In this document: in pieces, positions 170 to 5,467 of the stretch
How the letters are laid out: every line of letters begins with the position of its first letter
How positions within the stretch are numbered: position 1 is the first letter of the stretch
Origin: a virus
Lineage: Duplodnaviria; Heunggongvirae; Uroviricota; Caudoviricetes
DNA: 5,523 nucleotides
IMG/VR virus record: IMGVR_UViG_2695420565_000012
Reading direction: 5' to 3' (one strand)
The notes under the pieces: generated by a model
Seen by the model: only the letters and a program-made list of their open reading frames with translations
What the model was told of the DNA's origin: nothing
Databases searched by the model: none
Position numbers and translations under genes: made by a program

Positions 170-292
170 TGTCTTTTTCCCTTCTGGTTAACATGACATA
201 CCAATAACTCTTGTCTAAAAAGCCAGCAAGATAAAAAGTCAGTATTCACGACCACCAGCGTGTTTACTGTACTGCACCAAGTTTACAGGTAC

Positions 293-317
293 AAAAAACC
301 CGCTCAGTGGCGGGTTT
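293..317 (-). terminator. Rho-independent terminator-like hairpin downstream of the 205-aa gene
   Basis: Plus strand reads aaaaaa-CCCGC-tcagtg-GCGGG-ttt. Stem is 299-303 with 310-314 (5 bp GC-rich), loop 6 nt. On the minus-strand transcript the hairpin is followed by U6 (complement of the A-run at 293-298). The plus direction has only a short T-run, so it is weaker that way. Confidence 0.5.
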
Positions 318-446
318 AAGTTGTGTGGCGAAGTAACCACTCTTAACACACTAATAGCATTTTTGTTATAACACAAGTAGCTCATTCAGTATTTTTAGAA
401 TCTTGACTTTCTTAAGCACGGCGAACTCTGAATACCAAACATAAAA

Positions 447-1064
447 TCAATTATCTTCCAGGCCGGATGCTATCAACGAAAGCCTCTCAAAAAACGCTGT
501 AGCAGCCTTGTCCAAAGTTGAATAAGTACTGTATTCTCCGTGTTCGGGACCAACCACTACCCATGGTCGTCTTTTTGGGATTCGGGACTTCTCAGAAATC
601 ACTGTTCCAGATATACCAATATCAATTGTTACACCTGTTATTATTTTCTCTTCATCTCTTTCCCTGAACTCAATTGCCATAAATGCCGTTTTTTTTCGTT
701 TCCCGTTTTTAAAAAAATCAAATAAAGCAAAGCGATGCTCATTAAAATCAACACCCCATCGTCCTTCAGGATAAAGGGCATGAAAGTTGTCATTTACGCT
801 CTGCATCGTCTCATAAGCTTTAACTTTTAAATCTCCATAGTGCATAGATACCGCGCAGGAGTCACTGGGTAACTGTATTTTCCCAAGATTGAAAACCTTT
901 ACTGCTCCAGAACTATGGCATCTTGCCCGCAATTTATCCCCATTTATACTAATCGGAGAAATATTCCTTAATGTTCCGGGCTGGCTCCCTCCTAAGTAAA
1001 CGACTGTTAAAGATTGCTTATTTTCAATTGCATCAACTAATACATGCTCTACATTTTTATCCAT
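447..1064 (-). CDS. Hypothetical protein, 205 aa, AT-rich orphan/moron gene immediately downstream of Q; N-terminal region reminiscent of a WYL/Sm-like beta-barrel
   Basis: ORF-track entry 447..1091. I prefer the internal ATG at 1064..1062 because it has a strong SD (GGGAGG at 1076..1071, 5-nt spacer), whereas the ATG at 1091 has none. Stop TGA at 449..447. Hand count of 601-700 gives 33% G+C versus 50% for 4301-4400 in the Dam gene. N-terminal pattern LTVVYLGGSQPGTLRNISPISINGDKLRARCHSSGAVKVFNLGKI loosely fits the WYL-domain spacing, but this is unverified. Confidence 0.7.
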   Translation of the reverse strand: MDKNVEHVLVDAIENKQSLTVVYLGGSQPGTLRNISPISINGDKLRARCHSSGAVKVFNLGKIQLPSDSCAVSMHYGDLKVKAYETMQSVNDNFHALYPEGRWGVDFNEHRFALFDFFKNGKRKKTAFMAIEFRERDEEKIITGVTIDIGISGTVISEKSRIPKRRPWVVVGPEHGEYSTYSTLDKAATAFFERLSLIASGLEDN

Positions 1065-1139
1065 AATAACCTCCCAATGAACAGGTATCATCAGGAGGTT
1101 ATAATAAAATATGATTATTTACTTTGATTGAATTTATTA

Positions 1140-1511
1140 CTATATGTAACAATCAATTTCTAAAGATGCCCCCAACATTGCCAGACAACCGTCAATAAAC
1201 CCTTCAGCTTTCTGCAGTCTGATAACAACCTGATTAAGTGATATCCCCAGTTTTACCCCCAATACCCGTAATGTAACCCCATACACATAATACATTTCCA
1301 GTAATTCGTATTGATACGGTTCCTTTTTCTTAAGAACTGTCATCGCAGAGCTAATGATCAGGCCATCGTCATCGCTACATTGCGGGCGGGATTTTACTTT
1401 CGAAGGAATTAATCCCTTAAAACCTGCAGCAACAGATGACCATTCCACATCCTCGTGATTATTTGCCACCCATGCCCCCCAACGTTCAAGAACCATTTGA
1501 ATATCACGCAT
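1140..1511 (-). CDS. Late-gene antiterminator Q, phage 82 / QuuD-like family
   Basis: Translation [45 protein letters not shown]...[11 protein letters not shown] closely matches my recollection of E. coli DLP12 QuuD and phage 82 Q ([22 protein letters not shown]...SKVKSRPQC...RLQKAEG). Start taken at ATG 1511..1509 with SD GGAGAAA upstream, rather than the TTG at 1526 used by the ORF track. Stop TAG at 1142..1140. Confidence 0.85.
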   Translation of the reverse strand: [123 protein letters not shown]

Positions 1512-1528
1512 CAACTTTCTCCACAAAA

Positions 1529-2525: not shown

Positions 2526-3341
2526 TCAATGAACGGTATCGAGCAGCTTTAACAGCTCAGGGAATCGGGATTCGAAGAAATGCGGCTGCGTCTCGCGCGG
2601 ATTTGCGGGACTGGTGATGTTCTTGCCGAACATGCAACCTTTCGCTGTCAGCGACCAGAATTTTTTGATGTTGTTAATCGCGGTACGGCTGTATCGTTCG
2701 CGTTGTTCAACGATCCCCAGCTTCGCCATCTGGTGATATGCCTGATTAGCCGTCAGGCGGATACCATACTGCTTCAGCAGTGCACTCAGCGACAGCGTAG
2801 GGCGGCTTGAACCATCTGGCGCATCAGCAGGTGCATCAATGGCATAGATCGGCATAAGTTCAGGAAGACCAGCTACCTTTGATAATTTCTGGTATGCACC
2901 AAGTTTCGAGGAGTTTGACAGATTTAGAGTCTTTGCTGCTGATTCAAGCAGAATGACCCCGGATTTAATTTTGTCGGATGTGGTTTCTTCTGGTGATGAA
3001 TTATGAAGCGCATCAAAAGTACGTATCACTTTTAAGCTGAATGCCGGGCTGATCCACATTGCATATGCATAGACCAGCTCTTTACAGACATACGTCCCAC
3101 CATTGCGCCCCTGAATGGTGATGACAGGAATACTACGGGAATCTCCCGTAGTTTCTTCTTCCAATAATTCCACAAGAGCCTTCGTTTCAGGACGACGCAT
3201 AAACTCGTGAACTTCCAGCGAACGGGAGGAGCGATTCTCACCAGCGGCAAGAAGAGCAGCTTTCTGAAGGTCGTTAAGACAGTAGTTAGATTCGAAGTAC
3301 TGGCGCACAGAAACGCCATCAATTACAAGCAACTGATTCAT
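2526..3341 (-). CDS. Antirepressor-like protein with N-terminal KilA-N domain and ANT-like C-terminal region
   Basis: ORF-track entry 2526..3353 (GTG start). I prefer ATG 3341..3339 (MNQLLVIDGV...) with SD GGAGAA 5 nt upstream. N-terminal VRQYFESNYCLNDLQKAA...GRNGGTYVCKELVYAYAMWISPAFSLKVI fits the KilA-N pattern (G-T-W/Y-V...W-I/L-S-P-x-F). The C-terminal part resembles phage antirepressor C-terminal domains. Confidence 0.8.
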   Translation of the reverse strand: MNQLLVIDGVSVRQYFESNYCLNDLQKAALLAAGENRSSRSLEVHEFMRRPETKALVELLEEETTGDSRSIPVITIQGRNGGTYVCKELVYAYAMWISPAFSLKVIRTFDALHNSSPEETTSDKIKSGVILLESAAKTLNLSNSSKLGAYQKLSKVAGLPELMPIYAIDAPADAPDGSSRPTLSLSALLKQYGIRLTANQAYHQMAKLGIVEQRERYSRTAINNIKKFWSLTAKGCMFGKNITSPANPRETQPHFFESRFPELLKLLDTVH

Positions 3342-3438
3342 TGGTTTCTCCACAAATTTTTATCCACGAGCGGGACTGCACTCCCTTTTCGTTGATGCAG
3401 GATGAACTTACTGCGATTTTTAATAGTTATCAAGGATA

Positions 3439-3458
3439 CACTGTTCATAAATACAGTA
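3439..3458. promoter_or_regulatory. LexA (SOS) box candidate in the rusA-ant intergenic region
   Basis: Plus strand cactgttcataaatacagta has a perfect CTGT-N8-ACAG core with an AT-rich spacer and matches 16 of 20 positions of the consensus TACTGTATATATATACAGTA (counted by hand). It lies about 98 nt upstream of the antirepressor ATG at 3341. Confidence 0.5.
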
Positions 3459-3469
3459 TCTTTAACGAG

Positions 3470-3498
3470 GTAATACCCAAATTTAGGGTGTTGCTCAA
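3470..3498 (-). promoter_or_regulatory. Candidate sigma70 promoter for the antirepressor operon (-35 TTGAGC, 17-nt spacer, -10 TATTAC)
   Basis: Minus strand reads TTGAGC (3498..3493), a 17-nt spacer, then TATTAC (3475..3470). That would put the LexA box at about +5 to +24. An alternative pair, TTGATA-17 nt-TAAGTT, lies just downstream of the box. Prediction by eye only. Confidence 0.25.
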
Positions 3499-3503
3499 TT
3501 CCG

Positions 3504-3899
3504 TTACCGAGTTGCTAATTTGCAACTCGCTTTTTCGTACTTACTGATAGTGATCTCGACCTTCCCCTCCGGGATAACCGGTCCCCACTCCACCAGCATT
3601 CTTTTCACCTGTCTGTCGTCTTCCCACACACCCGCGTGGGTCAGGGCGTCAAACAGCGCCTTGTTATAGTTGTCCAGATCGCGGATCCGGTTATCCGGAG
3701 GAAACAACACGATCTCCACTGAAGCAGGTGCCGACGTTGGTTTCGGCAGACGACGTAACTGCTCAACTATTGCTGCACACGCCGCGCTCTGGAATTTTCG
3801 CCCCGCCGCGCTTATCAGGCTCTTACCAGCAAACGCCCCTTTGTTGGGGTGTCGCCAGTACGTGTTCACGCTGGGCGGAAAAGGCAGTATTAGCTTCAT
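3504..3899 (-). CDS. rusA: Crossover junction endodeoxyribonuclease RusA (Holliday junction resolvase)
   Basis: 131-aa ORF. LPFPPSVNTYWRH and RDLDNYNKALFDALTHAGVWEDDRQV match the RusA N-terminal and catalytic Asp-rich motifs (compare E. coli RusA LPWPPSNNRYYRH...[27 protein letters not shown]). ATG 3899..3897 overlaps the upstream stop as ATGA. Confidence 0.9.
   Translation of the reverse strand: MKLILPFPPSVNTYWRHPNKGAFAGKSLISAAGRKFQSAACAAIVEQLRRLPKPTSAPASVEIVLFPPDNRIRDLDNYNKALFDALTHAGVWEDDRQVKRMLVEWGPVIPEGKVEITISKYEKASCKLATR
3508..3535 (+). terminator. Plus-strand terminator-like hairpin inside the 3' end of rusA
   Basis: cgagttgc (3508-3515), loop taattt, gcaactcg (3522-3529) form an 8-bp stem, followed by cTTTTTcg on the plus strand. 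The minus-strand reading has no U-run. No convincing plus-strand gene lies upstream of it. Confidence 0.3.
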
Positions 3900-4222
3900 A
3901 CTTTCAGGCCCCTCTCATGTAACCAGTGGGCTGCACGCAGCCTGGCGTTTGCCTCACCGGCAAGCAGGGCGCGGATAATCCCGACCGCCTCGCTGTCGTC
4001 GTCCTTCACCGCGGTATGAAGAGTGATACCCCGGGCCACGCCACGCTTTATCGTGATGACACCTTTTTTCTCCAGTGCGCGAAGATGCTCCACCGCTGCA
4101 TTCACCGAACGGTATCCCAGCATGGTTGCCACCTCCTGATTGGTTGGCGGGAAGCCACGTTCTTTCTGATAAGAAATCAGCATATCCAGCACCTGCTGCT
4201 GGCATTGAGTTAATGTCGTCAT
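3896..4222 (-). CDS. LexA-family DNA-binding protein consisting of the LexA N-terminal winged-helix domain only (no S24 peptidase/autocleavage domain)
   Basis: 108 aa. LTQCQQQVLDMLISYQKERGFPPTNQEVATMLGYRSVNAAVEHLRALEKKGVITIKRGVARGITL aligns along its length with the E. coli LexA N-terminus ([65 protein letters not shown]). It is too short to contain the Ala-Gly cleavage site and Ser/Lys dyad domain. SD GGGAG upstream; ATG 4222..4220 overlaps the Dam stop (ATGA). Confidence 0.85.
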   Translation of the reverse strand: MTTLTQCQQQVLDMLISYQKERGFPPTNQEVATMLGYRSVNAAVEHLRALEKKGVITIKRGVARGITLHTAVKDDDSEAVGIIRALLAGEANARLRAAHWLHERGLKV

Positions 4223-4872
4223 GCCGCCATCTCCCTGACCAGTTTTTCCGCCTGCTGGCGAACCTGCGCCAGAAACGCCTCACCACATGCCTCAAGTTCA
4301 TCGCGCCCGATGTAGCTGATTGCCGCTCCCTTCCAGGTCTTGTCGAAAACAGCAATAGCACCAGCGAAGAAAGCACCTGTTGGCACCTGCTTTTCGTCTT
4401 TCGGGATAAACCAGGCTGGCAGTTCAAAACCAATACGCCCGCGAATAAAAGCAATATGATCTGCATCTTCCGGCCACCACACTTCGCTGGTGGCCGCTTT
4501 GATCAGGAAAACATAGCGCCCGCCCTTATCACGCATGGCACTGGCATGTTTCATGATGTAACGCATGCCGGTGATGTATTGCCCCTCATGCTGACTGGCG
4601 CGGCTGTATGGGGGATTACCAAAGGCAGCACCTTTAAGCTCCGCAAGACGTTCTGACCAGTCATGCGCCAGCGCGTTGTCTTCCGCCGTGTAATACGCGG
4701 CACATTTGGCGTTATCACCGTCAGTGAACAGATCCAGAACAAACGGACCAAACAAGGTGTTAATTCCCCAGAAAATGTTGTCCGGCGTGCGCCACTGATC
4801 GCCCACTTCCTTCAGTTCATGGGCTGGTTTGTTCCGCAGTTCTACCAGCGCCTGGCAATATTTATTACTCAT
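4219..4872 (-). CDS. Phage Dam-type DNA N6-adenine methyltransferase
   Basis: Contains FGNPPYSR, the (D/N)PPY catalytic motif of N6-adenine methyltransferases; overall resembles the phage N-6-adenine-methyltransferase family. Start taken at ATG 4872..4870 (MSNKYCQALVELRN...) rather than the GTG at 4917 from the ORF track, because the ATG overlaps the stop of the upstream micro-ORF (TAATG) and follows a GGGGG run. Stop TGA at 4221..4219. Confidence 0.85.
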   Translation of the reverse strand: MSNKYCQALVELRNKPAHELKEVGDQWRTPDNIFWGINTLFGPFVLDLFTDGDNAKCAAYYTAEDNALAHDWSERLAELKGAAFGNPPYSRASQHEGQYITGMRYIMKHASAMRDKGGRYVFLIKAATSEVWWPEDADHIAFIRGRIGFELPAWFIPKDEKQVPTGAFFAGAIAVFDKTWKGAAISYIGRDELEACGEAFLAQVRQQAEKLVREMAA

Positions 4873-4966: not shown

Positions 4967-5467
4967 TCACCCCCTGAATCCTTCCGGGATCTGGCTGTAG
5001 TCCACGTTGTCGTAACTGGCTTTGAAGTACGGGTCCTCGCGTCTGGCTGCAGATACCGCAGGAACTTCCCAGGATTCTTCGAAATGACGATCCGGACCAA
5101 AGAACGTCGACGCCTGCTTCACGAACTGGGTACCGGTATTTCCAGAGACACGCACCCAGGCGGCATAGCGTTTCACACCGTCGAGCATGGTTTCGGGTGT
5201 CACACCTTCCCTGATTCGGGCTTTCCAGGCTTTAAAAGCGGCGGATTTTGAATTACCACCAGCACGTTTGGGATATTCCTGCCAGGCCTGTTCAAATTCC
5301 GGTGAATATTCCTGTCTGGCAGAACGCGCTGGTGCAGACGCGTCAGCGGATGCGCCAATAGTGTTTTTAGTCTCCGTTGTAATCTCTGTAGTAATCTCTG
5401 TAGTAATCTCTGTATTTGAGGTGTACTGACAATAGCGGACACTACCATTTGTTCTTTTTTTAAGCAG
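4967..5467 (-). CDS. Phage replication-associated protein (conserved phage C-terminal domain, Phg_2220_C-like motif) with N-terminal (TEIT)n repeats; start codon undetermined, possibly frameshifted
   Basis: The frame is open from the stop TAG (5470..5468) to TGA (4969..4967). It reads ...NTEITTEITTEITTETKNTIGASADASAPARSARQEYSPEFEQAWQEYPKRAGGNSKSAAFKAWKARIREGVTPETMLDGVKRYAAWVRVSGNTGTQFVKQASTFFGPDRHFEESWEV... The F-x-x-(F/A)-W-x-x-Y-P-K-R...A-x-K-A-W...F-x-x-x-x-W pattern matches the conserved C-terminal domain of phage replication proteins as I recall it. No ATG/GTG/TTG occurs in this frame upstream of the GTG at 5203, which is the ORF-track start. Confidence 0.5.
   Translation of the reverse strand: MLKKRTNGSVRYCQYTSNTEITTEITTEITTETKNTIGASADASAPARSARQEYSPEFEQAWQEYPKRAGGNSKSAAFKAWKARIREGVTPETMLDGVKRYAAWVRVSGNTGTQFVKQASTFFGPDRHFEESWEVPAVSAARREDPYFKASYDNVDYSQIPEGFRG
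5379..5414. repeat. Perfect 12-bp tandem repeat x3 (gtaatctctgta), preceded by a degenerate copy from about 5371
   Basis: Read directly: 5379-5390, 5391-5402 and 5403-5414 are identical, and 5371-5378 (tctccgtt) is a partial related unit. In the minus-strand frame continuous with the downstream conserved domain it encodes TEIT-TEIT-TEIT. Confidence 0.9.

Follow-up and report, generated by a model that had tools for sequence, protein, structure and literature searches.

WYL domains are understood mainly as the part that senses single-stranded DNA (ssDNA) in DNA-damage and defense transcription factors such as DriD, PafBC, CapW and BrxR. In DriD, the residues Tyr168, Ser172 and Arg178 make hydrogen bonds to the backbone phosphates of ssDNA (PMC9186387). 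In CapW, which also senses ssDNA, the equivalent serine and flanking arginine residues make the contacts, and derepression of CapW protects cells against λ prophage induction (PMC11662680). A pattern of basic residues accompanied by a cysteine has been described for WYL domains (PMC4012209).

The protein considered here is encoded within a window of 5,523 nucleotides, that is, the whole stretch of phage DNA that was analyzed (Caudoviricetes; IMG/VR record IMGVR_UViG_2695420565_000012). It is a new and not yet characterized architectural variant in the WYL sensor superfamily. The family to which it belongs has kept the sensing site and has every known output domain replaced by a new one.

Gene organization of the window

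According to the list of open reading frames, all of the genes in the window are located on the minus strand. In the direction of transcription, the gene for a Dam methylase is followed by genes for a protein consisting only of a LexA DNA-binding domain, RusA, a KilA-N protein, a DUF968/HNH protein and a small antiterminator Q, after which come the target ORF, a terminator and the start of a phrog_331 gene (65 aa). An identical arrangement is present in E. coli S88, where it proceeds to an HTH protein, tRNA-Met/Arg/Arg, a SASA (NanS-p-like) esterase, DUF1378, a holin, a lysozyme and a terminase. Since the S88 arrangement runs on into holin, lysozyme and terminase genes, the window is judged to be the early-to-late junction of a lambdoid prophage. 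In the S88 prophage, the terminase and Rha genes are frameshifted.

The Q gene (1140..1526, minus strand) is of the small PF06530 type (Pfam E = 8e-47) and is the upstream neighbor of the target gene. The target coding sequence (447..1064, minus strand; ATG at 1064-1062, stop codon at 447-449) specifies an HTH-less WYL-domain protein of 205 aa, assigned to phrog_8498. The protein matches the RefSeq class 'WYL domain-containing protein' of E. coli S88 with full identity along its length, and the RefSeq call is also 205 aa. An in-frame ATG upstream at 1091 would serve as an alternative start and extend the protein to 214 aa. The Shine-Dalgarno (SD) sequence GGGAGG is found at 1070-1075 (minus strand), 5 nt before the ATG. 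The gap between the Q gene, which ends at 1140, and the target gene is exactly 75 bp (1065..1139, minus strand); this spacer is 25% G+C and has a -10-like TATTAT without a good -35. An intrinsic terminator (290..317, minus strand) with an 8-bp stem, a 6-nt loop and a U run is situated 130 nt past the stop codon, with a calculated ΔG of -13.8 kcal/mol (z = -3.2). Its sequence is the same as the annotated terminator of phage Ayreon, is identical in the Stx2c phages and is common to many lambdoid prophages; it was not among the listings of a simple terminator scan. These features confirm what had been described in an earlier, sequence-only reading of this DNA, namely a 205-aa ORF with an SD sequence that starts 75 bp after Q and is followed by a terminator.

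An Rfam scan of positions 1-1600 gave nothing above threshold, with STnc130 reaching 30 bits against a cut-off of 55. No LexA box was identified near the target gene. The sole perfect core is at 3441-3456, upstream of the KilA-N gene, to which the SOS box in this prophage is already wired.

Composition and selection

Taken as a whole, the target gene is 39.5% G+C (GC3 32%) against 48-56% G+C for five neighbors, the Dam, LexA-like, RusA, KilA-N and DUF968 genes, a difference in composition of the kind by which lambdoid morons are recognized. The Q gene is also low (42% G+C, GC3 40%), and the spacers range from 25 to 38%. Since Q is likewise low in G+C, the low-GC tract comprises Q, the cargo and both spacers rather than the cargo alone. 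The earlier proposal that the cargo is atypical in composition holds insofar as the target gene falls below its flanking genes, but the low G+C is shared by Q. The sample of 33% G+C from 601-700 on which that proposal was based was reproduced; the comparison sample from 4301-4400 is 54% G+C and not 50% as claimed.

A homologue that is 70% identical to the target, and that is also located directly downstream of a Q gene (locus L020), permitted a calculation of dN/dS, which was 0.24. Because of this value and a full-length match to hundreds of clusters, the target ORF is concluded to be a real gene under purifying selection.

The cargo slot and the late promoter

A 1-kb query spanning the gene was covered over at least 80% of its length in 51 of 5426 complete E. 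coli genomes, and partially matched in 1438. Where Q is of the same small type, the slot is empty in strain 2014C-4135 (L013), where Q is frameshifted; it holds an antisense gene for a 148-aa lipoprotein in two genomes and in the viable phage PhiR40_1, and one for a 308-aa protein, again antisense, in phage mEp460_4F5. Unrelated cargo accompanies the same Q type at loci L014, L015, L021 and L022. Where Q is of the large type, as in Ayreon and the Stx2c phages, the slot contains a gene for a 141-aa lipoprotein. Presence or absence at a fixed slot is a hallmark of lambdoid morons, and the finding that the same Q type may be followed by an empty slot or by unrelated antisense cargo agrees with the variable moron slot that had been proposed. 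From these comparisons, the target is considered to be a prophage accessory gene of the moron type, in a slot between the small-type Q and a conserved late leader and terminator. The locus offers a natural comparison of cargo insertion between a small Q and the late promoter, which includes an empty slot, three unrelated cargos and a putative translation-gating hairpin.

In the large-Q phages, Q is followed directly by a λ-like pR' (TTGCAT-17-TAAGAT, then AACGAT) and by the first of two terminator copies. The cargo is located between two copies of the same terminator, a layout that places it within the late transcript. At small-Q loci, a 31-nt block, TGTTAAGAGTGGTTACTTCGCCACACAACTT, is present directly before the terminator in every case and with any cargo. 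Since all of the small-Q loci have this block and none of the large-Q phages do, the block looks to be coupled to the small Q type. In the window, the block (318-348) forms part of a candidate pR' and leader (318..376, minus strand) in which TAGTGT (348-353) and TTGTGT (371-376) are separated by a 17-nt spacer. In each of the four independent contexts, the block is abutted by a hexamer whose second and sixth letters are A and T (TAGTGT, TATGCT, TATCGT and CAGTAT), and PhiR40_1 presents TTTACA-16-TATGCT at the same place. The candidate pR' hexamers are weak, with 7/12 in the window, and two of the four contexts are without a good -35. In the two viable small-Q phages, a terminator is found after Q and ahead of the cargo. 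A paper on the pR' regions of Stx phages does not include this Q type (PMC6266700).

The block and its abutting hexamer suggest, at somewhat better than even odds, that pR' and its leader are located at about 318-376, downstream of the target gene. Since pR' would then follow the gene, the target would fall outside the Q-dependent late operon; it probably resides between Q and pR' and is probably not Q-dependent. The Q-type-specific block and the -10-like hexamer found downstream of the gene argue against the earlier view that the Q-dependent late promoter drives its expression. No strong or convincing σ70 site for the target gene came out of a promoter scan. The TATTAT of the spacer, which abuts the 5' hairpin described below and was absent from the scan output, is weak by consensus and could at best be a candidate promoter belonging to the gene itself; at the equivalent position, the L020 homologue has TACAGT preceded by TGAACA-16. 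Transcription is probably independent of Q, either initiating at a weak promoter that belongs to the gene or continuing from the early operon as read-through, and the gene is probably expressed in the lysogen.

A hairpin in the 5' untranslated region

When a 100-nt segment of the 5' untranslated region (UTR) was folded, a hairpin (1060..1108, minus strand) was predicted that pairs the SD sequence (1070-1075) and flanks the start codon (MFE = -23.4 kcal/mol, z = -3.2). An equivalent hairpin was identified in the L020 homologue, where the changes are partly compensating. The description of the SD as strong is correct in that GGGAGG is present, but the sequence is sequestered in this conserved hairpin. 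The probability that the SD is unpaired is predicted to be 0.001 in a read-through RNA from Q, and 0.5-0.8 if the RNA starts 5-9 nt after TATTAT, in which case the 5' arm of the hairpin is missing. From this model, it may be hypothesized that the hairpin lets a short transcript of the gene's own be translated (in the lysogen, for example) and keeps early lytic read-through RNA from being translated. The hairpin was also considered as a terminator and rejected, since its U tract is poor and its stem takes in the SD and start codon of a gene on which purifying selection acts.

The N-terminal WYL domain

Residues 1-65 (870..1064, minus strand) are predicted to form an N-terminal helix and a five-stranded WYL (Sm-like) barrel. 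The WYL motif residues are Y23-x-GGS27-x-PG-x-x-R33, followed by KLRARC (44-49), K56, F58 and K62. A comparison of the target sequence with the Pfam WYL family (PF13280) gave 16.5 bits (E = 0.008, residues 8-64), which is below the gathering cut-off of 21.8. Relatives score between 13 and 20 bits, and one of them (P0115) has a precomputed PF13280 hit. An AlphaFold model calculated from 60 sequences (pLDDT = 84.5) has a helix and a five-stranded barrel in residues 1-62, with the barrel beginning at residue 17 after a single helix. This order, a helix and then an Sm-like five-stranded β-barrel, is that of a WYL domain. In the full-length model, how the two domains are oriented to each other is uncertain (pTM = 0.57).

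The target protein alone retrieved nothing in a sequence search of the PDB, and DriD was matched only by the family profile. The profile search identified the WYL domain of DriD (E = 3e-4), with DriD YEGGSTPGRTRE aligned with YLGGSQPGTLRN of the target, such that Y23, S27 and R33 correspond to DriD Y168, S172 and R178. These three residues and F58 are invariant in 60 diverse family members, K56 and K62 are invariant or nearly so, and C49 is invariant among the seven closest relatives. The ligand-groove residues of WYL domains, a Ser or Thr with several basic residues and often a Cys, are present in the target, where the basic and Cys pattern is made up of K44, R48, C49, K56 and K62. Taken together, the DriD profile match, the predicted barrel and the conserved contact residues uphold the WYL/Sm-like N-terminus that had been suggested from the sequence-only reading. 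By analogy with the structures described above, the ligand of this domain is most likely a single-stranded nucleic acid. It could also be RNA, as for the WYL1 protein of Cas13d, or a nucleotide.

The linker and C-terminal domain

The WYL domain is followed by a variable linker of low confidence (residues 66-85; 810..869, minus strand), with pLDDT below 50 at residues 69-73 and 77-79 and indel-rich alignment columns. Residues 86-205 (450..809, minus strand) are predicted to adopt a family-specific α/β fold consisting of a helix, an antiparallel sheet and a long C-terminal helix. A model of this domain alone had a pLDDT of 85.6 and a pTM of 0.75. The conserved residues W103, FKNGKxxK (118-125), RxRPW (about 164-168), A187 and F191 are basic and aromatic in character, with no catalytic-looking set among them.

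A fold comparison of the C-terminal domain provided no confident match and no recognizable motif. The earlier remark that the C-terminus lacks a recognizable motif is therefore correct, and no fold relative was found either. Foldseek against viral predicted structures returned nothing at E ≤ 1e-3, just small Sm-like barrels. Frataxin/CyaY-like and PsiB-like homologies were considered and rejected, given an identity of 8-14%, scores expected of a generic topology and no shared functional residues seen. A profile search with the C-terminal domain only, in which the word index limits sensitivity, retrieved no other architectures; the domain was always accompanied by a WYL domain.

No HTH was identified in the target protein by Pfam or NCBIfam, and neither the winged HTH of class A WYL regulators nor the C-terminal WCX dimerization domain is present. 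Searches with Pfam and by fold comparison also found no nuclease, TIR, Sir2, pore-forming or other toxic or enzymatic domain in the E. coli protein. Since it has no HTH and no enzymatic domain, the target cannot act as a WYL transcription factor. The only matches in PADLOC-DB 2.0 were to two CRISPR-associated WYL signaling models (E = 1e-3 to 7e-3), with the same result for longer relatives, and no HMM of a known anti-phage defense system was matched.

Distribution and genomic context of the family

A single-sequence search of 5.8 billion proteins identified only nine relatives. With a profile made from these nine and three tblastn hits, the family grew to 310 clusters at 90% identity; phmmer, run exhaustively on 1.84 billion representatives, gave 491 clusters at 50% identity. 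Since the relatives are nearly all 190-205 aa in length and align from end to end, the family unit is taken to be a conserved two-domain protein. On the basis of these searches, the family is considered widespread, and the stand-alone form of ~200 aa to be the commonest.

The target matches the PHROGs entry phrog_8498 over its full length (E = 8e-126), for which the function is listed as unknown. The 90% cluster to which the target belongs has 314 E. coli members, most of which are named 'hypothetical'. Given the cluster counts at 90% and 50% identity and the RefSeq name, the gene is not the orphan that it had been called. NCBIfam has no family for the target protein, and in the literature, the accession and PHROG were mentioned in no paper found, nor was a paper found on phage-encoded HTH-less WYL proteins.

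A minority of relatives contain an added module. Those of Enterobacter soli pENTAS02 and Serratia have an N-terminal BRCT domain, and the relatives P0145 and P0249 have an N-terminal transmembrane segment. In P0227, P0188 and Pseudoalteromonas phage PY3, a C-terminal extension of about 170 aa was observed, and this module of 155 aa was named 'domain X'. It is encoded by a separate gene 3 nt downstream of a family member in one metagenomic genome (L017) and has no match in Pfam, PADLOC or the PDB.

The relative in Marinobacter prophages comes second in an operon that diverges from cro, with a CI-like repressor gene immediately ahead of it. Serratia and Enterobacter carry P2-like elements in which a relative is located between the C repressor and the integrase. 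The relative abuts the integrase in Pseudoalteromonas phage PY3 and also in a defense/toxin-antitoxin island with Abi_C, RloB/AAA_21 and HicB. One relative is beside a type I-F CRISPR-Cas system in a mobile region, and several are found in unremarkable chromosomal settings. A BLASTP analysis of the neighbors in 12 sampled contexts identified no conserved neighbor gene apart from 'domain X' (one neighbor and a few fusions). The picture suggested by these contexts is that of a mobile-element accessory gene, often located where temperate phages keep lysogen-expressed functions. That relatives are found in immunity operons makes it plausible that the gene has an accessory role during lysogeny.

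Proposed function and alternatives

The reading that is favored, with a probability of about 60%, is that the target is a moron-carried WYL sensor or adaptor that stands alone, binding single-stranded nucleic acid and using its C-terminal domain to act on a partner. The WYL domain would contact the backbone of ssDNA, and possibly of RNA, with the Tyr/Ser/Arg triad that DriD uses, the ligand being generated on DNA damage, on induction of the prophage or on entry of a phage. Binding would change the arrangement of the two domains, and the basic, family-specific C-terminal domain would then act on a partner that is not encoded adjacent to the gene in E. coli. Translation would be gated by the hairpin that buries the SD. 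In this proposal, we infer ligand binding, lysogen expression, the position of pR' and the downstream effect. Since no conserved neighbor was found in the 12 contexts, the proposed partner is hypothetical.

A tentative extension to the family as a whole, which we regard as doubtful, is that its members are stand-alone and hitherto unrecognized ssDNA or ssRNA sensors in the immunity and integration modules of temperate phages and other mobile elements. The C-terminal domain, as an output of a new kind, would act alone or by way of the BRCT domain, membrane anchor or 'domain X' to exclude other phages or to tune induction or a host alarm.

An alternative that we consider unlikely is single-gene anti-phage defense or superinfection exclusion, the role (abortive infection included) that the sequence-only reading had put forward, in which the WYL domain would detect ssDNA or replication intermediates of an incoming phage in the lysogen, and the C-terminal domain would block the infection or the cell. 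The positions of relatives after cI, and between the C repressor and int, are comparable to that of rexAB and are lysogen-expressed. One relative occupies the Abi_C, RloB/AAA_21 and HicB island and another is beside the type I-F CRISPR-Cas system, the variants fused to a transmembrane segment or extra domain may possess an effector, and the other cargo of the same slot are typical morons. However, the PADLOC matches are confined to CRISPR-associated WYL regulators, the E. coli protein is without a nuclease, TIR, Sir2, pore-forming or other toxic domain, and its C-terminal domain has no relatives outside of the family. Several members are also found in ordinary chromosomal contexts, and the sequestered SD speaks against simple constitutive expression.

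It is less likely again that the protein serves as a counter-defense or SOS-damping sponge for the ssDNA alarm of CapW, BrxR or RecA, which would keep CBASS or BREX repressed or stabilize lysogeny during induction. CapW uses the same residues for ssDNA, and CBASS driven by CapW restricts λ induction (PMC11662680); a phage would gain from blunting this response. A sponge would also be consistent with a protein that has kept the ligand site and lost every transcription-factor output domain, and with a gene that is directly after Q, has no terminator between and would be co-transcribed with delayed-early genes on induction. This mode of expression is at odds with the SD, which is predicted to be fully paired in the Q read-through RNA, and the stoichiometry of a sponge would require a high level of expression. 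Moreover, the fold resemblances are at noise level and reflect a common α/β sandwich, and many members are chromosomal and outside of phages.

Relatives are found immediately beside repressor genes in three phage lineages, which raises the possibility of a modulator of induction, that is, a RecA-independent sensor of DNA damage that feeds the lysis-lysogeny switch, for example by binding a repressor or antirepressor. The C repressors of P2-type phages are not known to be cleavable by RecA, and an added damage sensor would be useful in their case. The BRCT fusions are suggestive of DNA-damage biology (Makarova et al. 2014, PMC4012209), and the prophage already links an SOS box to its KilA-N gene. 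This role is nonetheless improbable for the E. coli gene, which is far from the immunity region. Viable phages that are closely related and carry this Q do without the gene, and it is therefore not needed for induction. Nor does it co-vary with any type of repressor, and non-phage members exist.

Finally, a chance ORF or the decaying, non-functional remnant of a defective prophage might be suspected from the AT-rich region, the lack of a named function and the frameshifted genes (terminase, Rha) of the S88 prophage, but this is excluded by conservation, as dN/dS is 0.24, hundreds of clusters in many phyla are conserved over their full length, a two-domain fold is confidently predicted and the DNA identity over the 1-kb query is ~99.7% in the 15 best-matching E. 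coli genomes among the matches listed.

If the tentative extension to the whole family is true, WYL sensing would extend from transcription factors to a direct, non-transcriptional mechanism. With a family that is often beside the repressors and integrases of temperate phages, it would show how phages use the ssDNA alarm to exclude rivals, blunt defenses or time induction. The target is small, is encoded by a single gene and occurs in E. coli pathotype strains that have been sequenced, S88 among them.

Comparison with known systems

With respect to position, relatives of the target resemble λ rexAB, being co-oriented after cI or placed between C and int, and the E. coli gene shares its slot with lipoprotein morons. 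There is no sequence or fold similarity to rexAB or to lambdoid morons such as the bor-type lipoproteins.

The WYL1 protein of type VI-D CRISPR systems, an accessory of Cas13d, has 385 residues in its solved structure and adjoins cas13d; it also possesses an N-terminal ribbon-helix-helix domain. In contrast, the second domain of the target family is a different one, and its genes share no conserved neighbor.

DriD, PafBC, CapW and BrxR share a wHTH-WYL-WCX architecture of about 300-330 aa, whereas the target is ~200 aa and lacks the winged HTH, the linker or three-helix bundle and the WCX domain, with a C-terminal domain that is unrelated. Since the wHTH and WCX domains are absent, a bound ligand could not be read out as DNA binding by the target itself. 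The survey of Makarova et al. 2014 contains neither the conserved C-terminal domain nor the stand-alone 200-aa form, while the BRCT-fused relatives from Serratia and Enterobacter P2-like prophages fit the WYL-BRCT architecture that it describes (PMC4012209).

Predicted translational control of the WYL-domain gene

RNA folding predicts a stable hairpin in the 5'-UTR of the WYL-domain gene (window 1060–1108, minus strand), which pairs the Shine-Dalgarno sequence (1070–1075) and flanks the start codon. An equivalent 5'-UTR hairpin is kept by a homologue of 70% identity. The Shine-Dalgarno sequence is predicted to be closed in RNA reading through from Q, and to be accessible in a short RNA whose 5' end lies after the TATTAT that adjoins the hairpin.

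A candidate late promoter and leader

A 31-nt block, TGTTAAGAGTGGTTACTTCGCCACACAACTT (318–348, within a candidate promoter region at window 318–376), and a terminator (290–317), all on the minus strand, are also found in E. coli 2014C-4135 (L013), where the slot is empty, in two further E. coli genomes (L014, L015) and in phages mEp460_4F5 (L021) and PhiR40_1 (L022). At each of these small-Q loci, irrespective of the cargo, the block is situated before the terminator. It is abutted by a -10-like hexamer with A at position 2 and T at position 6. As judged from sequence, the block and the hexamer are a candidate for the late promoter and leader of the small Q type, positioned downstream of the cargo slot. 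The terminator region is overlapped on the opposite strand by a sub-threshold Rfam match to STnc130, an enterobacterial sRNA candidate (window 189–325, plus strand; it scores 30 bits where the cut-off is 55, E = 0.04), which is probably not significant.

Alternative cargos and added modules

Two other cargos of the slot are encoded antisense to Q. The first protein, 148 aa long, carries a lipoprotein signal (L014 1941–2387, L015 1804–2250, L022 2742–3188); the second, a 308-aa protein of phage mEp460_4F5 (L021 2737–3663), returned no family match.

Some members of the WYL-domain gene's family carry a C-terminal fusion of approximately 155 aa, domain X, which is encoded as a separate gene 3 nt downstream of another member. 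Domain X presents the motif WxFxVPYxFRxAxDIKYE...WTQGP...MGWDxDK and occurs in a metagenomic genome (L017 7582–8049), in proteins P0227 and P0188, and at L005 2006–3115; searches of Pfam, PADLOC and the PDB gave zero matches to it. Membrane association is also recurrent among the relatives. Two members, P0145 and P0249, have an N-terminal transmembrane segment, one member is overlapped from upstream by the gene of a small membrane protein (L023 5706–6011), and the Enterobacter soli member is preceded by a protein anchored in the membrane at its C-terminus (L004 4079–4708).

Possible SOS-related features and a tandem repeat

The spacer immediately upstream of the KilA-N gene (window 2526–3353, minus strand) contains a perfect LexA-box core, CTGTTCATAAATACAG (3441–3456; extended form ACTGTTCATAAATACAGTAT), and this placement suggests that the KilA-N gene is SOS-controlled and of the antirepressor type. 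Upstream of this box, between the Dam and RusA genes, lies the gene for a 108-aa protein composed of the LexA DNA-binding domain alone (PF01726, E = 3e-19; 3896–4222, minus strand). Neither a peptidase nor a cleavage domain was matched in it by Pfam. The protein could serve as a non-cleavable LexA mimic.

Close to the right end of the window is a 12-bp tandem repeat, TCTCTGTAGTAA (5371–5414, 3.7 copies, 93% match), placed upstream of the gene whose S88 counterpart is annotated as a PerC-family regulator. The repeat may be iteron-like or part of a coding region.

Comparison with large-Q phages

In the large-Q Stx2c phage PV98-693 (L002) and phage Ayreon (L003), the terminator AACCCGCCACTGAGCGGGTTTTTT is present twice in the region of about 3000–3900, with one copy on each side of a 141-aa lipoprotein cargo. 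Insertion of this cargo may have been accompanied by duplication of the terminator. The first copy follows a promoter that resembles λ pR', TTGCAT-17-TAAGAT, and then AACGAT.
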